64,000 nucleotides of DNA from Candidatus Levyibacteriota bacterium (lineage in GTDB: Bacteria; Patescibacteriota; Microgenomatia; Levybacterales; UBA12049), in contig DAHWUP010000004.1 of assembly GCA_027334565.1 (NCBI GenBank), positions 15,138 to 79,137 on the forward strand, written 5' to 3'. The notes below the pieces were generated by a model. It was not told the DNA's origin. It worked only from the letters and a program-made list of their open reading frames with translations, and did no database searches. Numbering within the stretch: the first letter of the stretch is position 1; every line of letters begins with the position of its first letter. Positions 243 through 29,700 of the stretch are shown in pieces. The translations under genes and the position numbers were made by a program.

Positions 243-329
243 CGGAGGAGGTGAGATTCGAACTCACGATTCCTTATACGGAATGGCGGTTTAGTAAACC
301 GCTGCACTAGGCCGCTATGCGACTCCTCC
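243..329 (-). tRNA. type II (long variable arm) tRNA, Ser-like identity (G73), anticodon reads ACU by hand-fold
   Basis: Reverse complement folds as GGAGGAG..GCAT/GTGC D-arm..GCGGT-TTACTAA-ACCGC anticodon arm..18-nt variable arm..GTGAG-TTCGAAT-CTCAC T-arm..CTCCTCC-G. Canonical T-loop and acceptor; anticodon assignment is unusual. Confidence 0.6.
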
Positions 330-960
330 TTAGCTTACTAGCTGATTCTCCAAACTGTTCATAAATCCCTATCAACTTAAGTTGAATTGTATAATCAGAG
401 TATCTTATAGTGCAGGTTCCCATATAATCTTTTCTACGTTTCTTGCCATTTGCAATTGTAACAGTCGGTTTCATAAATTGAGAAGCCGGTATATCCAATA
501 TATTACTCCAGTATGTTTTAAGCTTACTAAAGTTTTGCCCAGAATGTATTTGTAATTTGACCCTGAATTTTGATTCGTTTAAAGTAAAACCGGATCTTAG
601 CAGTTTAATGAATGTTTCAAGTAAAAGCGGGTCGGAATTTGTCAGGTCAAGTTTATTGGTCGATGGGTATTTTGATCCCTCGCACCAGTAAATAATTGAA
701 GCCAATATTTTGGCTGCATTCTTATTTAAATAATTAAAGTTTTTTAGCGACTTGATTTCCGATTGTTTTATACTGTTTCTTTTTCTAAAGTTCGTGTTTA
801 GCAGTGTGTCCCGTCTTGCTCCTATAAATTCATTTTTACACCAGTTCCTGATAGTACTTGCGGGTATTCCGGTAATTTTTTGAAGTTGGGCAAACGAATA
901 TTTATATCGGGTTCTTAGCGATAAAGCTTTTTCTATTTCTATGTCTTTATATCTCTTCAT
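307..960 (-). CDS. HTH-domain protein with LAGLIDADG-like motif (putative homing-endonuclease-like, paralog of 28590-29288)
   Basis: 217-aa ORF. N-terminal HTH-like segment (SFAQLQKITGIPASTIRNW). Motif ILASIIYWCEGSK resembles LAGLIDADG/LxxxxEGEG. Shares NSDP..L, YWS..IP..F blocks with the second copy. Start codon 2 nt after the tRNA-Ser 3' end; stop codon lies in the D-loop of the tRNA at 243-329. Confidence 0.4.
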   Translation of the reverse strand: MKRYKDIEIEKALSLRTRYKYSFAQLQKITGIPASTIRNWCKNEFIGARRDTLLNTNFRKRNSIKQSEIKSLKNFNYLNKNAAKILASIIYWCEGSKYPSTNKLDLTNSDPLLLETFIKLLRSGFTLNESKFRVKLQIHSGQNFSKLKTYWSNILDIPASQFMKPTVTIANGKKRRKDYMGTCTIRYSDYTIQLKLIGIYEQFGESASKLRRSRIAA

Positions 961-961
961 G

Positions 962-1046
962 CGGAGGGTACAGGATTCGAACCTGTGGACGGCTATTCAC
1001 CGTCACGGCTTAGCAAGCCGCTCTATTACCACTCTAGCAACCCTCC
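962..1046 (-). tRNA. tRNA-Ser (anticodon GCU)
   Basis: Hand-fold: acceptor GGAGGGT/ACCCTCC, 3-bp D stem, anticodon arm GCGGC-TTGCTAA-GCCGT, long variable arm, T-arm ACAGG-TTCGAAT-CCTGT, discriminator G. Confidence 0.75.
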
Positions 1047-2665: not shown

Positions 2666-2668
2666 ATG

Positions 2669-3031
2669 TGGAGATGTCCGAGAATGACCCGGAGTCCAAG
2701 AATGCGTTTAAAAAAATCTACAAGCTTATTCTGCCTTTAAGAGTCGCCTTATTCTTTTCCGGTAGAAGGGAATAAATAAGACCAAGATTATAAATTCAAT
2801 AAGGACCCAATCAGATTCCTTATCAAGTTCCCGACTTTGTTTATGCTCAAAAAATCTCATCGGGAGAAGATTTGATGAACACCTCAAATTACTTAAGCGT
2901 ATGCGTAAGCAAATTGCGGGCTAAAACGTGAAGTTCTAGCATTTAATTTTTGATTCTTGTTTTACGGCTACTAATCAAAGCCGGCTTGCATTTTTTAAAG
3001 TGCTAAATCCTGTCGATGCAATTGCATCCCC
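2669..3031 (-). ncRNA. ssrA: tmRNA (SsrA)
   Basis: Minus-strand 5' end GGGGAUGCAAUUGCAUCGACAGGAUUU matches the tmRNA 5' consensus (GGGGcUG...GGAUUCGACGGGAUUU). 3' end is ..GGAC-UCCGG-GUCAUUC-UCGGA-CAUCUCC-A, giving a 7-bp acceptor with the G3-U70 Ala identity pair. Candidate tag ORF starts at resume codon GCU about 100 nt from the 5' end. The gene lies immediately downstream of smpB. Confidence 0.7.
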
Positions 3032-22101: not shown

Positions 22102-22647
22102 ATGTCCATTTATACGAAATTTGGCGATAAAGGAAAGACAAGTTTATTTGCAGGAAGGGTCGTTTCCAAATCAAGCGTAAGGGTTAACACCTATGGGTCG
22201 CTGGACGAACTCAATAGTTATCTGGGGGTCATCTTATCCAAGATAAAAAACAAAAAGATTAGGCAAGAGTTAACACTGGTCCAAAACGATTTGTTTGAAA
22301 TAGGCGCATATCTTGCCAACCTTTCTTATAGCAAAGGACAGGCGCTTGATAAATATTTAGAAAAAAGGGTTTCGCAGTTTGAAAAAGAGATTGACACGTT
22401 AACGAACACAATGCCACCTCTTAAAAATTTCATTTTACCGGGAGGTTCCGAGACCGGCGCTAATTTGCATTTTTCCAGGACCTTAACCAGGAGGGCGGAA
22501 AGGCGCGTCGTCGAACTTTCGGAAAAAGAAAAAGTAAGCCCGAAGGTACTGATATACATGAACAGACTTTCGGACCTGCTTTTTACTTTTGCTAGATTTA
22601 TAAATAAAGAAAATAAAGTTAAAGAAATTATTTGGTCGTCACGATAG
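22102..22647 (+). CDS. ATP:cob(I)alamin adenosyltransferase, PduO/MMAB type
   Basis: MSIYTKFGDKGKTSL N-terminus and overall PduO-type pattern; 181 aa. Confidence 0.75.
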   Translation: MSIYTKFGDKGKTSLFAGRVVSKSSVRVNTYGSLDELNSYLGVILSKIKNKKIRQELTLVQNDLFEIGAYLANLSYSKGQALDKYLEKRVSQFEKEIDTLTNTMPPLKNFILPGGSETGANLHFSRTLTRRAERRVVELSEKEKVSPKVLIYMNRLSDLLFTFARFINKENKVKEIIWSSR

Positions 22648-22654
22648 AATAATT

Positions 22655-22779
22655 TCTTCGGGTGAAAGCCGGTGTAATCCCGGCGCTGTGCCGCAACTGT
22701 AAAGCCAGAGCCCCGTAAAAAATCTTCCGAGCAGAAGTATGTTTTTAATATACAACTCCTCGGAATTTGAGGAGTTTTT
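22655..22779 (+). promoter_or_regulatory. cobalamin-riboswitch-like leader with terminator/SD-sequestering expression platform
   Basis: GGGUGAAAGCC-GGUGUAAUCC-CGGCGCUGU-GCCGCAACUGUAA-AGCCAGAG matches the core of the cobalamin aptamer consensus (GGGAAnccGGUGnnAAnUCC..CnGnnCCCGCCACUGUaa..AGCCAG B12-box start). Downstream hairpin ACUCCUC-GGAAUUU-GAGGAGU plus U5 contains the SD (GAGGAG) 5 nt before the ATG at 22780. Confidence 0.45.
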
Positions 22780-24508: not shown

Positions 24509-26881
24509 ATGGGCAGTTCATATATTTATTCCAATATTAACAATCTATTGACGGCGCTGGTTTTAGCGGTGGTTATTCTTGCGGTTACGGCGGGATTGAT
24601 ACTGGGAGGATTATATCTTTTTCTCATCTGGTATAAAAACAGGGACAGGGAACAGCAGTCGTTGGATTCTACTTTGCTTCAAGTTTTGGTTCCGCGGGAC
24701 AACGAAGTAAAAATCGACGCAGCAGAACAATTATTTTCAAGCCTAACCGGAGTCAGAACTCACGGAATGTTCGCATTTTTAAAAAATCCCCCACATATTT
24801 CTTTTGAAATCGTCGGGATGCCCGAAGATATCAGGTTCTATATATATACTCCCAATAAATACCGTGATATTGTAGAAAAACAAATCAACGCTTCCTACCC
24901 CGATGCGGAAATAAGGGTGGTTGATGAGAAGCAGGCAAAGGAAGGGTTCATCATCGGAAACGAATATAATATTTTTAGTAAGGAGGGAAAAGTCGCTTTT
25001 GCTTCACTCAAGCTCAAGGATTCTAACTATAAACCGCTTAAGATGTACAAGGATTTTGCGGTCGATCCGATGGCTTCAATGACCTCGGTTCTGGCGAAAA
25101 TGAGTCAGGGGGAGGGCGCAGCGATTCAGATTTTGGTATCAGGAGCCGATTCTAAATGGAGCAAATCGGGAAGAAGCTATATTGCTACCACCAAGAAAAG
25201 CGAATCCAACCCCGAAACCGCCAAGTATTCATCCGATCCCAAAGAGCTTGAGGGAATTGAGAATAAGATTTCAAAACCGGGTTTTTATTCCGTGATAAGA
25301 ATCGTAGTTTCCTCAATGTCTCAGGAAGCGGCCAGTGCACACCTTGAAAATATATTAACGGCCTTTACCCAGTTTGACGGCACCAACTCTTTAACTAAAA
25401 ACAAACATTGGCTTAAAGGGGGATTCATCCAGGACTTTGTTTACAGGTATTTTCCTACCCGTGGCAACCTTTCGGTCTTAACCAGCGAAGAGTTGGCCGG
25501 CGTTTTCCATCTGCCTAACAAAAGCGTTACCACACCGCACATTGAGTGGATCAATGCCAAACGGGCGCCGGCCCCGGCACAAATTCCATCATCCGGGCTT
25601 TATCTTGGAATGAGCACCTTTAGGGGGATTGCCAAACCGGTGTATGTCCAGGAAGACGATAGAAGAAGACATATGTATATTATCGGTAAAACTGGTGTCG
25701 GAAAGTCGGAATTATTAAAACAAATGATCGTTCAGGATGTCAATGAAGGCAAGGGCATCGGTGTAATAGACCCGCACGGGGATCTGATCGAGGATATCTT
25801 AAAACTGATCCCGCCGCAGCGGGCCGAAGATGTAATTTTGTTCGACCCCTCGGATACCGAAAGACCGGCTGGTTTAAATATGCTCGAGGCGCAGACAGAA
25901 CAGGAGAAACATTATATCGTATCTTCGATCGTTGGATTAATGTACAAACTGTATGACCCCAATAAAACCGGGATTATCGGGCCGAGGTTTGAGCACGCGA
26001 TCAGAAATGCCATGCTTACCGTGATGTACGAACCGGGTAGCACTTTTATCGAGGTGGTCAGGGCTTTAACCGATGCATCCTTTGTCCAGGAACTTTTACC
26101 TAAAGTCACCGATCCGATCGTCAGACGCTACTGGACCGATCAGATTGCGCAAACCAGCGATTTTCATAAATCCGAAGTTTTAGATTATATTGTTTCGAAA
26201 TTCGGTCGTTTCGTCACGAATAAAATGATGCGAAACATCATCGGTCAGTCCAAATCCGCTTTTGACTTTAGAAAAGTAATGGATGAGGGAAAAATACTTT
26301 TGGTCAATCTCTCCAAAGGGAAAATCGGTGAGGAGAACTCAAGTTTTTTGGGTTTGGTGATGGTACCGAAAATTCTGGTTGCAGCCATGAGCAGACAGGA
26401 CGTTCCACAGGAACAAAGGAGGGATTTTTATCTATATGTCGACGAGTTCCAGAATTTTGCTACCCCCGATTTCGCGCAGATCCTTTCGGAAGCCAGGAAA
26501 TACCGTCTTAATCTGATTGTCGCCAACCAGTTCATCGGGCAAATGGAGGAGGAGGTCAAAAATGCCATCTTTGGGAATGTCGGGACGATCATGTCGTTTA
26601 GGGTGGGCGTCACCGATGCAAACTACCTTCAGCATGAGTTCCAGCCGACCTTTACCGAAGCGGATCTTATCAATGTCGATGTCTATAATGCTTTTGTCAA
26701 AACCATTGTCAACAACGAACCGGTCACCCCGTTTTCTATCGATACCACCAAAGATATGACCAAGGAAAAAGGGATGGAGAACCCAAGGGTAGCGGAACTG
26801 ATCAGGGAGCTTTCAAGGTTAAAATACGGAAAAGATGTCGTCAACCTCGAGGCGCAGATCGCACAAAGAGCAAGACTTTAA
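24509..26881 (+). CDS. membrane-anchored VirB4/TraC-like (AAA_10-type) P-loop ATPase
   Basis: N-terminal TM hairpin. Walker A YIIGKTGVGKSELL followed by GVIDPHGDL (the VirB4/TraC IDPKGEY-like motif). Walker B YVDEFQNF and LIVANQ motif. 790 aa. Confidence 0.45.
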   Translation: MGSSYIYSNINNLLTALVLAVVILAVTAGLILGGLYLFLIWYKNRDREQQSLDSTLLQVLVPRDNEVKIDAAEQLFSSLTGVRTHGMFAFLKNPPHISFEIVGMPEDIRFYIYTPNKYRDIVEKQINASYPDAEIRVVDEKQAKEGFIIGNEYNIFSKEGKVAFASLKLKDSNYKPLKMYKDFAVDPMASMTSVLAKMSQGEGAAIQILVSGADSKWSKSGRSYIATTKKSESNPETAKYSSDPKELEGIENKISKPGFYSVIRIVVSSMSQEAASAHLENILTAFTQFDGTNSLTKNKHWLKGGFIQDFVYRYFPTRGNLSVLTSEELAGVFHLPNKSVTTPHIEWINAKRAPAPAQIPSSGLYLGMSTFRGIAKPVYVQEDDRRRHMYIIGKTGVGKSELLKQMIVQDVNEGKGIGVIDPHGDLIEDILKLIPPQRAEDVILFDPSDTERPAGLNMLEAQTEQEKHYIVSSIVGLMYKLYDPNKTGIIGPRFEHAIRNAMLTVMYEPGSTFIEVVRALTDASFVQELLPKVTDPIVRRYWTDQIAQTSDFHKSEVLDYIVSKFGRFVTNKMMRNIIGQSKSAFDFRKVMDEGKILLVNLSKGKIGEENSSFLGLVMVPKILVAAMSRQDVPQEQRRDFYLYVDEFQNFATPDFAQILSEARKYRLNLIVANQFIGQMEEEVKNAIFGNVGTIMSFRVGVTDANYLQHEFQPTFTEADLINVDVYNAFVKTIVNNEPVTPFSIDTTKDMTKEKGMENPRVAELIRELSRLKYGKDVVNLEAQIAQRARL

Positions 26882-26908: not shown

Positions 26909-26980
26909 GCGTCCATAGCTCAGCGGTAGAGCGCTACTCTTATAAAGTAGATGTCCTTGGTCCGAATCCAAGTGGACGCA
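26909..26980 (+). tRNA. tRNA-Ile (anticodon UAU)
   Basis: Hand-fold: GCGTCCA acceptor, GCTC/GAGC D stem, CTACT-CTTATAA-AGTAG anticodon arm, CTTGG-TCCGAAT-CCAAG T-arm, discriminator A. Confidence 0.7.
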
Positions 26981-27185
26981 CTTTCGGTTAATGTTATTAG
27001 ACAAAGCTATCGGTTTAAAAAAGACTTTTGCGCACCGGTCATTTTCCGGTTCGCGGATTTCATAAGATTATAACGTAAATTTCCTTCTAGGAAGAACATT
27101 TCAGTTCCTCCATGAAAATGGTCCCACAAAGCGAATCCTTCAGGATTTTTAAGTTTTATAACAGTTTTTTAACCGAGGAACGAAT

Positions 27186-28046
27186 TTACAATTCGGTCAG
27201 CGTGGAGGTTTCTTTGCCCCGGTCGGGAACATACTGAAGGTATCTTTCGGTGGTAGAAAGCCTTTTATGACCCAAAACCTTGGACAAAACTACCAAGGAG
27301 ACGCCGTGTTTTAAGTGGTGGGCAACAAAGGTGTGTCTTAAATCGTTAACTTTAGCGTCTTTGATTTCCGCCAGCCTAAAGTATCTTTCTACCGCGGTCC
27401 TGATGTTTCTTATCAAAAACGGTTTTCCGCTTTTTGTAACGAAGACGTGATCGTCCGAAACTTTTGGTCTTATTTCCAGATACCTGTCAAGTGCGCTCTG
27501 GGCACTTTTGTTTAACGGGACATTTCTTTCTTCATGTTTTTCAAAGGGGGAGATATGCAGAGAATCTTTTAATATATCCGAAAGCCTAAGATTTGCCAGT
27601 TCCCCGATCCTGATTCCGGTTTGAAGTAAAAGCTCGATTACCGCGAACATCCGCGAATCATTTCTGGCAGCATCCCTTAAAGCCCTGTATTCGGTAGGCG
27701 TCAAAATTCTGGGCGGTGCAAGTTGGTACTTAGGGTGCGCAACCAAAAGTGAAGGATCATCCGTGATATATTCGTTGACTTTTAAAAATCTGTAAAACGT
27801 TCTGGTCGAGTTGATTTTTCTGGAGACAGACTTTGGGGTATAACCTTCCTTGCCTAATTTGGCCAAAAAGGCTTGGATATCTTCGGTCGACACCTCATGG
27901 ATATTGTTTTTCTTTAATTCTTCCAAAAAAGTAATCAGCTGGTCGACATCCTTACCATAAGCAACCACCGTCGAAGCCGACTTTTGGTTTTGCTTTAAAA
28001 AATTCTTAAATTCCTCATGGGCATTTCTTAATGTCACCGGTTTCAT
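27186..28046 (-). CDS. tyrosine recombinase (XerC/XerD / phage-integrase family)
   Basis: C-terminal LRHTFVAHHL..GHKRLSTTERY (R..H..R..Y catalytic tetrad); N-terminal SAM-like core-binding domain; 286 aa. Confidence 0.8.
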   Translation of the reverse strand: MKPVTLRNAHEEFKNFLKQNQKSASTVVAYGKDVDQLITFLEELKKNNIHEVSTEDIQAFLAKLGKEGYTPKSVSRKINSTRTFYRFLKVNEYITDDPSLLVAHPKYQLAPPRILTPTEYRALRDAARNDSRMFAVIELLLQTGIRIGELANLRLSDILKDSLHISPFEKHEERNVPLNKSAQSALDRYLEIRPKVSDDHVFVTKSGKPFLIRNIRTAVERYFRLAEIKDAKVNDLRHTFVAHHLKHGVSLVVLSKVLGHKRLSTTERYLQYVPDRGKETSTLTEL

Positions 28047-28508: not shown

Positions 28509-28538
28509 AGTACTAGGGGCGAGATTCAAATTGTTCAG

Positions 28539-28610
28539 TACCAACGGCTGGATTCGAACCAGCGACTTGACGCTTATGAAACGTCCGCTCTACCCCTGAG
28601 CTACGTTGGC
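28539..28610 (-). tRNA. tRNA-Met/Ile2-type (anticodon CAU), G1-U72 wobble
   Basis: Hand-fold: GCCAACG acceptor pairing CGTTGGT, GCTC/GAGC D stem, GACGT-TTCATAA-GCGTC anticodon arm, GCTGG-TTCGAAT-CCAGC T-arm, discriminator A. Confidence 0.75.
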
Positions 28611-29288
28611 GTAATCAATTTGGGATAATCCTTCTAATAACCCCATAATTTTACCATAAATCCTTGAAGGCTGCTGGACCCGGACTATAAGCGTACCATA
28701 ATACTCGTTATAATTGGCATATATTTTTTTATTCTGTGCTTTTCTGAATACAGTTTTATTAAAGCGATTTATTGGAATTCCGGTTAACTCCGACCAATAC
28801 CTTTTAATAATAGTATCCCGTTTCTTGTGGATGAGATTAATGCCGACATAACAATATATATCTTTATAATTAATATTTAGGCATTTCTGAAGCCACAAAA
28901 TGAAAAATTTTACTAATTTTGGATCAGAATTACACAGTTCTATTTTTCTTCCTTTTTTGCTTCCTTCTCCCCAATATAAAGCAATACCTGCTATTAACAT
29001 TTCTCTGTTTGTAAGCTTACCGATTTCTTTTATCCCCTGATTCTTATTTTTTTCAAAATTTTTTAACCATCTCTCCTTTTGTAATAATGCACTTTTTAAT
29101 CTGCCGCGCTCTGACCCTAATATGCTTGATTTTCTTAGGTGCTCTAATTGTTCAACCGTTAAAATAATATCCCTTACCCAAATACTTGCTGAGCTTTTAG
29201 ATACCCCGAGTTTTAAAGCAATTTCCTTTACGCTTTTGCCCCGTTTTCGCATCTGACGCGCCTTAATTCTCAATGAATATTTTGCCAT
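28590..29288 (-). CDS. HTH-domain protein with LAGLIDADG-like motif (putative homing endonuclease), paralog of 307-960
   Basis: 232 aa. HTH-like KEIALKLGVSKSSASIWVRD. LIAGIALYWGEGSKKG (LAGLIDADG-like). CNSDPKL and YWSELTGIP blocks shared with the 307-960 ORF. Stop codon lies 21 nt inside the 5' end of tRNA-Met. Adjacent to a group I intron-like RNA. Confidence 0.45.
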   Translation of the reverse strand: MAKYSLRIKARQMRKRGKSVKEIALKLGVSKSSASIWVRDIILTVEQLEHLRKSSILGSERGRLKSALLQKERWLKNFEKNKNQGIKEIGKLTNREMLIAGIALYWGEGSKKGRKIELCNSDPKLVKFFILWLQKCLNINYKDIYCYVGINLIHKKRDTIIKRYWSELTGIPINRFNKTVFRKAQNKKIYANYNEYYGTLIVRVQQPSRIYGKIMGLLEGLSQIDYANVAQG

Positions 29289-29469
29289 ATGAACGAACAG
29301 TAATATTAGTTAATATTTATATTATAACGTCGGTTTGTTTAATTTGTCAAAGCTGTTTTCATTGCTTATTGTTCTTAATTTTGTTAAAATATCAATACAC
29401 GCGGGGTAGTGTACAGTGCACATGAGGCTTAATAATGGGCCGTTTTAATAGTAATATTAGAATAGAATC

Positions 29470-29700
29470 TGGCTATATCGGTGAACCCCTAGCGTTTAGG
29501 GTAACACCGAGGGAAGTCGAAATCTAAAATTGAGATCCCGTAGAGACTACACGCCAGACATCCTGAGTTTATCTAAGGATGATGATATAGTCCGACACTC
29601 TAGGTAACTGGAGAAACAGGAGGCATAATCTCATAGGCTAGGCGCAACTCCTAGCCCCGCAACATCGAAAATTTAGCCTCAGATTTGACATTTTTCTTCG
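29470..29700 (+). ncRNA. group I intron-like ribozyme core (approximate boundaries)
   Basis: R element UAGAGACUACA (29541-29551) and S element GAUAUAGUCC (29584-29593), nearly identical to the group I consensus (..CAGAGACUACA / AAGAUAUAGUCC) and to Tetrahymena (GAUAUAGUCGGAC). P8-like hairpin CAUCCU..AGGAUG between them. GGGAAG / UCCCG P4-like pairing upstream. P9-like hairpin GGCUAGG-CGCAACU-CCUAGCC downstream. Confidence 0.5.

Follow-up and report, generated by a model that had tools for sequence, protein, structure and literature searches.

Candidate homing-endonuclease genes with a predicted LAGLIDADG-like fold at the 5' boundaries of tRNA genes in Patescibacteria

What kind of gene runs into the 5' end of a tRNA gene, and does so twice within one stretch of DNA? 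The question is raised by two open reading frames (ORFs), ORF-A and ORF-B, in 64,000 nucleotides of Candidatus Levyibacteriota bacterium (contig DAHWUP010000004.1, positions 15,138 to 79,137), the whole of which was analyzed and is referred to here as the window (Table 1). We consider it likely that both are free-standing homing-endonuclease genes of a highly diverged LAGLIDADG-like superfamily, situated at the 5' boundary of tRNA genes, whose products presumably cleave DNA. This assignment builds on the domain architecture of the proteins, their predicted fold, an invariant glutamate, the specificity of each clade for a given tRNA, the flush or overlapping junctions, a patchy distribution and the existence of empty sites.

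The start codon of ORF-A (960-958) lies 0-1 nt past the 3' end of tRNA-Ser(GCU), rather than the 2 nt given in an earlier note on this DNA, and the frame continues across the first 23 nt of the next tRNA-Ser (242/243-329) to a TAG stop codon (309-307) within the D-loop CCTAG, as that note had described. ORF-B, rightly said there to treat a tRNA-Met in the same way, overlaps the first 21 nt of tRNA-Met(CAU) and also ends with a TAG in the D-loop (GGGGTAGAGC). Both genes are free-standing, ORF-A between two tRNA-Ser genes and ORF-B between tRNA-Met and an initiator tRNA, and neither lies within an intron. The two proteins share the motifs YW(C/G)EGSK, NSDP and YWS..IP and align with 27% identity over 173 aa (BLASTP, E=1e-12); judged by sequence they are paralogs, as had been proposed, and no third paralog was found in the 64-kb window. 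The tRNA-Ser at 242-329 is the positional ortholog of the tRNA-Ser(UGA) of relatives. Its anticodon is ACU (loop UUACUAA), which is also seen at L081 3634-3721, L083 2522-2607, L139 374-461 and L136 2849-2937 among the loci fetched for comparison; it stands in the place of tRNA-Ser(UGA) (loop CUUGAAA) in relatives, with the remainder of the tRNA nearly identical.

Relatives of ORF-B were surveyed in 80 species-level genomes, kept from 324 found, and those of ORF-A on 80 metagenome contigs. An elongator-type tRNA-Met begins no more than 50 nt from the ORF end in 60 of the 80 ORF-B relatives, and in 47 the stop codon lies inside this tRNA; stop positions in the ORF-B family fall mostly at U8-A9-G10 (a 10-nt overlap, 27 loci), at the D-loop TAG (21 or 23 nt) or at U36-A37-A38 (38 or 39 nt). 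Of the 80 ORF-A relatives, 68 have a tRNA-Ser that adjoins the ORF end or overlaps it (30 of them overlapping), and a tRNA-Ser(GCU) ending 0-4 nt 5' of the ATG, as in the window, recurs in 19. Given this recurrence the geometry is not due to chance, and the association with tRNA genes that had been anticipated for other genomes is borne out. Flanking genes vary among loci; the ORF-tRNA pair is constant.

The pairing is not restricted to these two tRNAs. A third subfamily (C) shows the order rpmG-ORF-tRNA-Trp with a 10-15-nt overlap at six of six loci, which were returned from three protein look-ups and represent three distinct gene contexts, and a family-profile scan of all fetched loci revealed further clades preceding tRNA-Ile(UAU), tRNA-Arg(GCG) and tRNA-Ser(GGA). 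When 173 ORFs were clustered by sequence, the resulting groups were pure for downstream tRNA identity. Over several hundred homologous loci the tRNA association is systematic and clade-specific: clade A is partnered with tRNA-Ser, clade B with tRNA-Met and others with Trp, Ile(UAU) or Arg(GCG), to which His, Val, Thr and Pro are added in arrays from IMG/VR. There, arrays of up to 19 tRNAs on 12 distinct contigs (69-548 kb) harbor full-length members with the motif YW[AGS]EG (E 1e-36 to 1e-41); on several of the contigs these adjoin tRNA-His, Val, Met, Thr or Pro directly or with a 10-nt overlap. Among IMG/VR contigs catalogued as viral (L169-L184), members including decayed fragments were seen in arrays of 7-19 tRNAs per 4.5 kb. 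A tblastn search of GenBank phages gave no match.

Homologs of each ORF number in the hundreds; almost all lack a name and come from Patescibacteria (Levybacteria, Microgenomates, Parcubacteria and others), where ORF-A has 150. A two-family profile collected 7,044 clusters at 50% identity with E≤1e-3, and 4,022 with E≤1e-10, from 1.84 billion representatives; subfamily C comprises 2,918 clusters at 90% identity. Literature searches yielded no description of the family. Scans of both proteins against Pfam, NCBIfam, PHROGs and PADLOC matched only the N-terminal helix-turn-helix (HTH), which is of transposase/resolvase type, and no nuclease or defence family. The AlphaFold model of ORF-B is a confident one, with a predicted local distance difference test (pLDDT) score of 90.5. 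In it the HTH is built from three short helices and is followed by a helix of 45 residues and then by an alpha/beta domain; modeled alone, this domain reached a pLDDT of 86.5 and a predicted template modeling score (pTM) of 0.80. Its predicted fold has the LAGLIDADG core, alpha-beta-beta-alpha-beta-beta-alpha with a four-stranded DNA-binding sheet, and the pair E108-G109 closes the first helix (94-108). This Glu-Gly of the motif YW-x-E-G (E94-G95 in ORF-A) is retained without exception in three subfamilies with mutual identities of only 25-35%, and Y91, C93, E94 and G95 of ORF-A show no variation in 44 family members. Invariance was read from alignments A1, A3 and A5; locus searches used family-specific alignments, the joint alignment being too diverse. 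For the invariant glutamate we infer a catalytic role. Single-chain relatives in which the full repeat and its YWCEG motif occur twice (P0250, P0252-P0254, P0256, P0258, P0263 and P0276; 396-576 aa) may echo the homodimer/monomer split of LAGLIDADG enzymes. The high Ala, Arg and Gly content of these two-repeat proteins suggests high-GC source organisms, probably outside the typical Patescibacteria.

The earlier note had further proposed a selfish element that rides with tRNA genes, and occupancy, composition and decay all speak for it, with nuclease activity and homing as the presumed means. The site between a 790-aa gene (window 24509-26881) and tRNA-Ile(UAU) is empty in the window and in L045, L002 and L018; in L039, a 705-nt family ORF lies between the conserved 790-aa gene and the same tRNA. 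Incidental occupancy in the fetched loci is patchy, with 0 of 3 sites filled for Trp, 2 of 7 for Ile(UAU), 2 of 27 for Arg(GCG), 1 of 6 for Ser(GGA) and none for Thr, Leu and Arg(CCG). Some copies are split or truncated (L040, L052, L120, L172, L173, L177, L184), and further members reside in the IMG/VR tRNA arrays. ORF-A has a GC content of 34.7%; together the two ORFs have 34-35% GC and 32-34% at third codon positions (GC3), which is about 2 standard deviations lower on both measures than the 42 long ORFs of the window (GC 42.2±4.2%, GC3 45±6%). The 790-aa neighbor was tried as a yardstick for vertical versus horizontal descent and set aside, its identity being too uniform (59-75%). The tRNA-Ile(UAU) gene itself lies at window 26909-26981 (plus strand), and a family clade precedes the same tRNA in L020, L039 and L010; its presence makes a UAU tRNA, and not a lysidine-modified CAU tRNA, the probable reader of AUA.

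ORF-B has a second tRNA neighbor. An initiator tRNA-Met diverges from it across a 111-nt intergenic gap and carries, between U33 and C34, a group I intron that begins 142 nt from the ORF-B start. ARAGORN alone overlooks this split gene; spliced in silico, it is recognized by the same program as a 70-nt tRNA-Met(CAU) with a C1:A72 mismatch. Neither the intron nor the ACU anticodon of the tRNA-Ser downstream of ORF-A had been noticed in the earlier note. About 37 of the 80 ORF-B-family loci have a homologous intron as the immediate upstream neighbor of the ORF, nearly always divergent and 100-340 nt from the start. The Met family comprises two groups: B1, which includes ORF-B and is followed by the elongator tRNA-Met, and B2, which has no downstream tRNA and is paired with an intron-containing initiator tRNA in nearly every case; both are present in L021, L034 and L051. 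A gene outside an ORF-less intron is an arrangement described in phages as collaborative homing (PMC3984707, PMC2790892), and that of ORF-B and its neighboring intron would fit such a scheme. A 2026 survey of tRNA introns in Patescibacteria sought endonuclease genes inside introns only, found that most introns have none and concluded that mobility is limited (PMC13011429).

Table 1. Positions of ORF-A, ORF-B and the adjoining tRNA features in the window.
Feature	Position	Strand	Basis or remark
tRNA-Ser, anticodon ACU	242/243-329	minus	ARAGORN; Rfam 50.6 bits
ORF-A, 217 aa, Ser-associated clade	307..960	minus	N-terminal HTH, linker helix, LAGLIDADG-like domain
ORF-A LAGLIDADG-like domain, ~residues 80-204	349..723	minus	aligned to ORF-B domain
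Candidate catalytic Glu94 codon of ORF-A	679-681	minus	
tRNA-Ser(GCU)	961/962-1046	minus	ARAGORN; Rfam RF00005, 56 bits; 3' end adjoins ORF-A ATG
Elongator-type tRNA-Met(CAU)	28538-28610	minus	ARAGORN; Rfam 67.6 bits
ORF-B, 232 aa, Met-associated clade B1	28590..29288	minus	HTH 2-38, long helix 45-89, LAGLIDADG-like domain 94-223
ORF-B LAGLIDADG-like domain	28620..29009	minus	
Candidate catalytic Glu108 codon of ORF-B	28965-28967	minus	
Predicted sigma-70-type consensus promoter (TTGACA, 18 nt, TATAAT)	29321..29350	minus	12/12 pattern match
5' exon, initiator-type tRNA-Met	29400..29429	plus	spliced in silico, ARAGORN
ORF-less group I intron, 194 nt	29430..29623	plus	Rfam RF00028, 95.4 bits, full-length model
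3' exon, initiator-type tRNA-Met	29624..29663	plus	spliced in silico, ARAGORN

How might such a gene spread? We suggest that the protein would dimerize through its single LAGLIDADG-like domain, with the two N-terminal HTH domains adding contacts to the flanking DNA, and that it would recognize a long target made up of the conserved 5' part of one tRNA gene and the sequence just upstream of it, in genomes that lack the ORF. The target would be cut by means of the invariant glutamate at the end of the first helix, and repair by recombination with an occupied allele would copy the gene in, flush to the tRNA. The insertion would at the same time destroy the recognition site and so protect the carrier; for the B2 genes, and perhaps for ORF-B too, the site could instead be shielded by the intron. 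That each clade keeps to one tRNA identity would follow if recognition co-evolves with the target.

Several observations weigh against this interpretation. Sequence methods (Pfam, profiles of PDB sequences) provide no link between the domain and LAGLIDADG families: neither protein matches the Pfam LAGLIDADG profiles PF00961, PF03161 and PF14528 at E<=10, and phmmer and family-profile searches of PDB sequences returned HTH proteins only and no LAGLIDADG match (a hit to HindIII at E=0.2 was dismissed as noise). Foldseek gave nothing significant and did not recover the LAGLIDADG fold. The suggestion that these proteins are LAGLIDADG-like, made in the earlier note, is upheld by the predicted fold and by the E-G at the end of the first helix, and finds no backing from the Pfam profiles or Foldseek. 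The top single structural match is to WhiA, a domesticated LAGLIDADG protein that acts as a transcription factor and not as a catalyst, with PI-PfuI, I-Vdi141I, I-CvuI, I-MsoI and I-CreI following at lower Z. Presence and absence at a syntenic site was seen for the Ile clade and not for the sites of ORF-A or ORF-B. The ORFs are conserved, as had been supposed, and intact in nearly all chromosomal loci, while identity declines with taxonomic distance, from 50-65% within Microgenomates to 32-45% in genomes labeled Parcubacteria or Saccharibacteria; both patterns are also consistent with long vertical maintenance under purifying selection. About a dozen B-type loci (L004, L009, L026, L031, L044 and others) adjoin an intron-less initiator tRNA, which weakens the candidacy of the intron insertion site as the target of B1, including ORF-B, and makes it an unlikely one. 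Finally, the way in which the adjacent intact tRNA would escape being cut is hypothetical.

In the main rival to homing, the ORFs would encode domesticated WhiA-like DNA-binding proteins without nuclease activity, regulating themselves or the tRNA gene that follows and, for ORF-B, the divergent initiator tRNA as well. The divergence of ORF-B and the initiator tRNA over 111 nt does resemble a regulator-target pair, some ORFs retain the -10 box of the tRNA in their 3' end, and the intactness, strong conservation and distance-dependent identity of the ORFs are in keeping with such a role. We nevertheless regard it as unlikely. WhiA has reportedly lost its catalytic acids, whereas the acidic residue that ends helix 1 is invariant here; occupancy is patchy for each tRNA and syntenic sites stand empty; copies sit in tRNA arrays on large IMG/VR contigs, and decayed ones exist; and the ORFs are richer in AT than the host genome. 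WhiA (DUF199) is moreover a conserved single-copy host gene in which two degenerate LAGLIDADG domains precede a C-terminal HTH, in contrast to the reversed order found here, one domain after an N-terminal HTH, together with the invariant glutamate, multiple paralogs, patchiness and tRNA linkage. Neither protein matches any WhiA model of Pfam, and none of the traits that define WhiA was found. A related notion, to which we give somewhat less credence, is that a LAGLIDADG ancestor gave rise to tRNA-dedicated factors, one paralog per tRNA gene, each binding its own tRNA gene or precursor and having its own synthesis coupled to maturation. Processing by RNase P would then turn the mRNA into a non-stop message, so that protein output would report the speed of tRNA processing, giving genome-reduced bacteria and phage tRNA arrays a built-in feedback on individual tRNAs.

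LAGLIDADG maturases exist, and the domain might accordingly serve as an RNA-binding, maturase-like or tRNA-processing cofactor that attaches to the group I intron or to the precursor of the neighboring tRNA and assists in folding, splicing or end maturation. The physical overlap of mRNA and tRNA would suit this, as would the intron in the initiator tRNA beside about half of the B-family loci and nearly all B2 loci. The partner tRNAs of the A, C, Ile, Arg and large-IMG/VR-contig clades lack introns, however, as does the initiator tRNA at the dozen or so B loci mentioned above, and the transposase-type HTH points to DNA binding, which together render such a function very improbable. Least credible of all is a remnant or accessory gene of a transposon or of an integrative element whose attachment sites are tRNA genes, with the HTH as a transposase or excisionase module. 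It could draw on a weak match of the HTH to the N-termini of IS3/IS630/Tc1-type transposases and on a tyrosine-recombinase-like ORF 500 nt from tRNA-Met. The protein has no DDE or recombinase domain, though, no terminal inverted repeats or target duplications were found at the ORFs, and what recurs amid varying flanking genes is a single gene of about 0.7 kb at the tRNA 5' end, where integrases use the 3' end; with terminal repeats, target duplications and a catalytic domain all absent, this explanation was rejected.

If the ORFs are homing-endonuclease genes, they have precedents in part. Their lifestyle is closest to that of SegB of phage T4 and of other free-standing homing endonucleases from tRNA gene regions of phages, and their fold to the single-domain LAGLIDADG enzymes and WhiA. 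SegB is a GIY-YIG endonuclease encoded in a tRNA cluster; it recognizes a tRNA T-arm motif and drives the preferential inheritance of itself and the neighboring tRNA genes (PMC2330249). Like SegB, the members described here are free-standing genes among tRNA genes, and relatives of ORF-A and ORF-B lie within tRNA arrays of large IMG/VR contigs; unlike that phage enzyme, they are LAGLIDADG-like with an N-terminal HTH, mostly chromosomal in Patescibacteria, and split into clades, each of which adjoins, and often overlaps, tRNA genes of a single identity at their 5' ends. From the homodimeric LAGLIDADG enzymes with a single motif, such as I-CreI, I-CeuI and I-MsoI, they differ in having no match to Pfam LAGLIDADG_1/2/3, in the motif YW(C/G/A)EG in place of LAGLIDADG, in an extra helix between the first two strands, in the HTH and 45-residue helix, and in being neither intron- nor intein-encoded. 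The placement of ORF-B and about 37 of 80 relatives at 100-340 nt from an ORF-less intron parallels that of F-CphI and the psbA intron in cyanophages and of MobE and the nrdB intron in T4, although those pairs concern phages, interrupted protein genes and HNH or other nucleases, and the present one a bacterial chromosome and an interrupted tRNA. In Cyanobacteriota, introns at position 33/34 of tRNA-fMet, the same tRNA and insertion site as here, encode an endonuclease (PMC13011429). The cyanobacterial enzyme is a PD-(D/E)XK protein inside the intron; in Patescibacteria the intron has no ORF, and the LAGLIDADG-like gene is external to it.

Homing-endonuclease genes as such are well known, and what is new is the lineage, the architecture of an HTH plus a single domain, and a colonization of tRNA-gene 5' edges that is systematic and clade-specific, both on bacterial chromosomes and within the tRNA arrays from IMG/VR. 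Should the assignment prove correct, the family would constitute a very large unannotated LAGLIDADG branch, with about 4,000 50%-identity clusters at E≤1e-10 and no Pfam model, and would supply fresh scaffolds for the recognition of long DNA sites, with natural targets, the tRNA genes, that are known beforehand. Within the literature searched, these would be the first free-standing homing-endonuclease genes placed systematically at the 5' edge of chromosomal bacterial tRNA genes, and a shared mobile gene would link Patescibacteria chromosomes with the tRNA arrays of large IMG/VR contigs. An external partner gene beside the initiator-tRNA intron in dozens of genomes would also offer an answer to the question of mobility raised by the intron survey (PMC13011429), and the gene-tRNA overlaps would predict tRNA-punctuated, leaderless, non-stop mRNAs.

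The last prediction concerns expression, for which the earlier note had proposed co-transcription with the tRNA on the grounds that neither ORF has a Shine-Dalgarno sequence. The observation is accurate for both ORFs and the argument fails: a Shine-Dalgarno-like motif precedes only 5 of the 42 long ORFs in the window, and with such motifs rare throughout the genome their absence is uninformative, so that it was rejected as evidence. A further caveat is that ORF-B has a predicted consensus promoter of its own, 32 nt upstream of the ATG and recognized by its match to the consensus only, while ORF-A has no space for one. Several ATGs in the window lie 6-10 nt 3' of a TATAAT box (starts at, for example, 13856, 30942 and 37787); together with the scarcity of Shine-Dalgarno motifs, this points to a frequent use of leaderless mRNAs by the organism. 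Extended -10-like boxes (TGGTATAAT, TGGTAAAAT) were also noted in the final codons of several ORFs of the family, 10-40 nt 5' of the tRNA (L020 5840-5880, L010 180-225 and window 28611-28660), which suggests that the tRNA promoter may be embedded in coding sequence, a case of dual coding. Since the -10 box of the tRNA is kept in the last codons of the ORF in some relatives, co-transcription would not be obligatory.

Expression of the ORFs could nonetheless be parasitic on tRNA transcription. Trimming of the 3' end of tRNA-Ser(GCU) would leave ORF-A with a near-leaderless mRNA, and because the stop codons lie inside the downstream tRNAs, cleavage by RNase P would remove them and yield non-stop mRNAs from both ORFs. 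With a gene for transfer-messenger RNA (tmRNA) present, such messages might keep a potentially toxic nuclease scarce. The tmRNA gene lies at window 2666-3031 on the minus strand (Rfam, 100 bits). The tyrosine-recombinase-like ORF near tRNA-Met, of XerC/D type as judged from its translation, encodes 286 aa (27186-28046, minus strand) and lies between tRNA-Ile(UAU) and tRNA-Met. Elsewhere in the window, an AdoCbl-II riboswitch aptamer was matched at 22646-22721 (plus strand) with 38.6 bits, barely above threshold.

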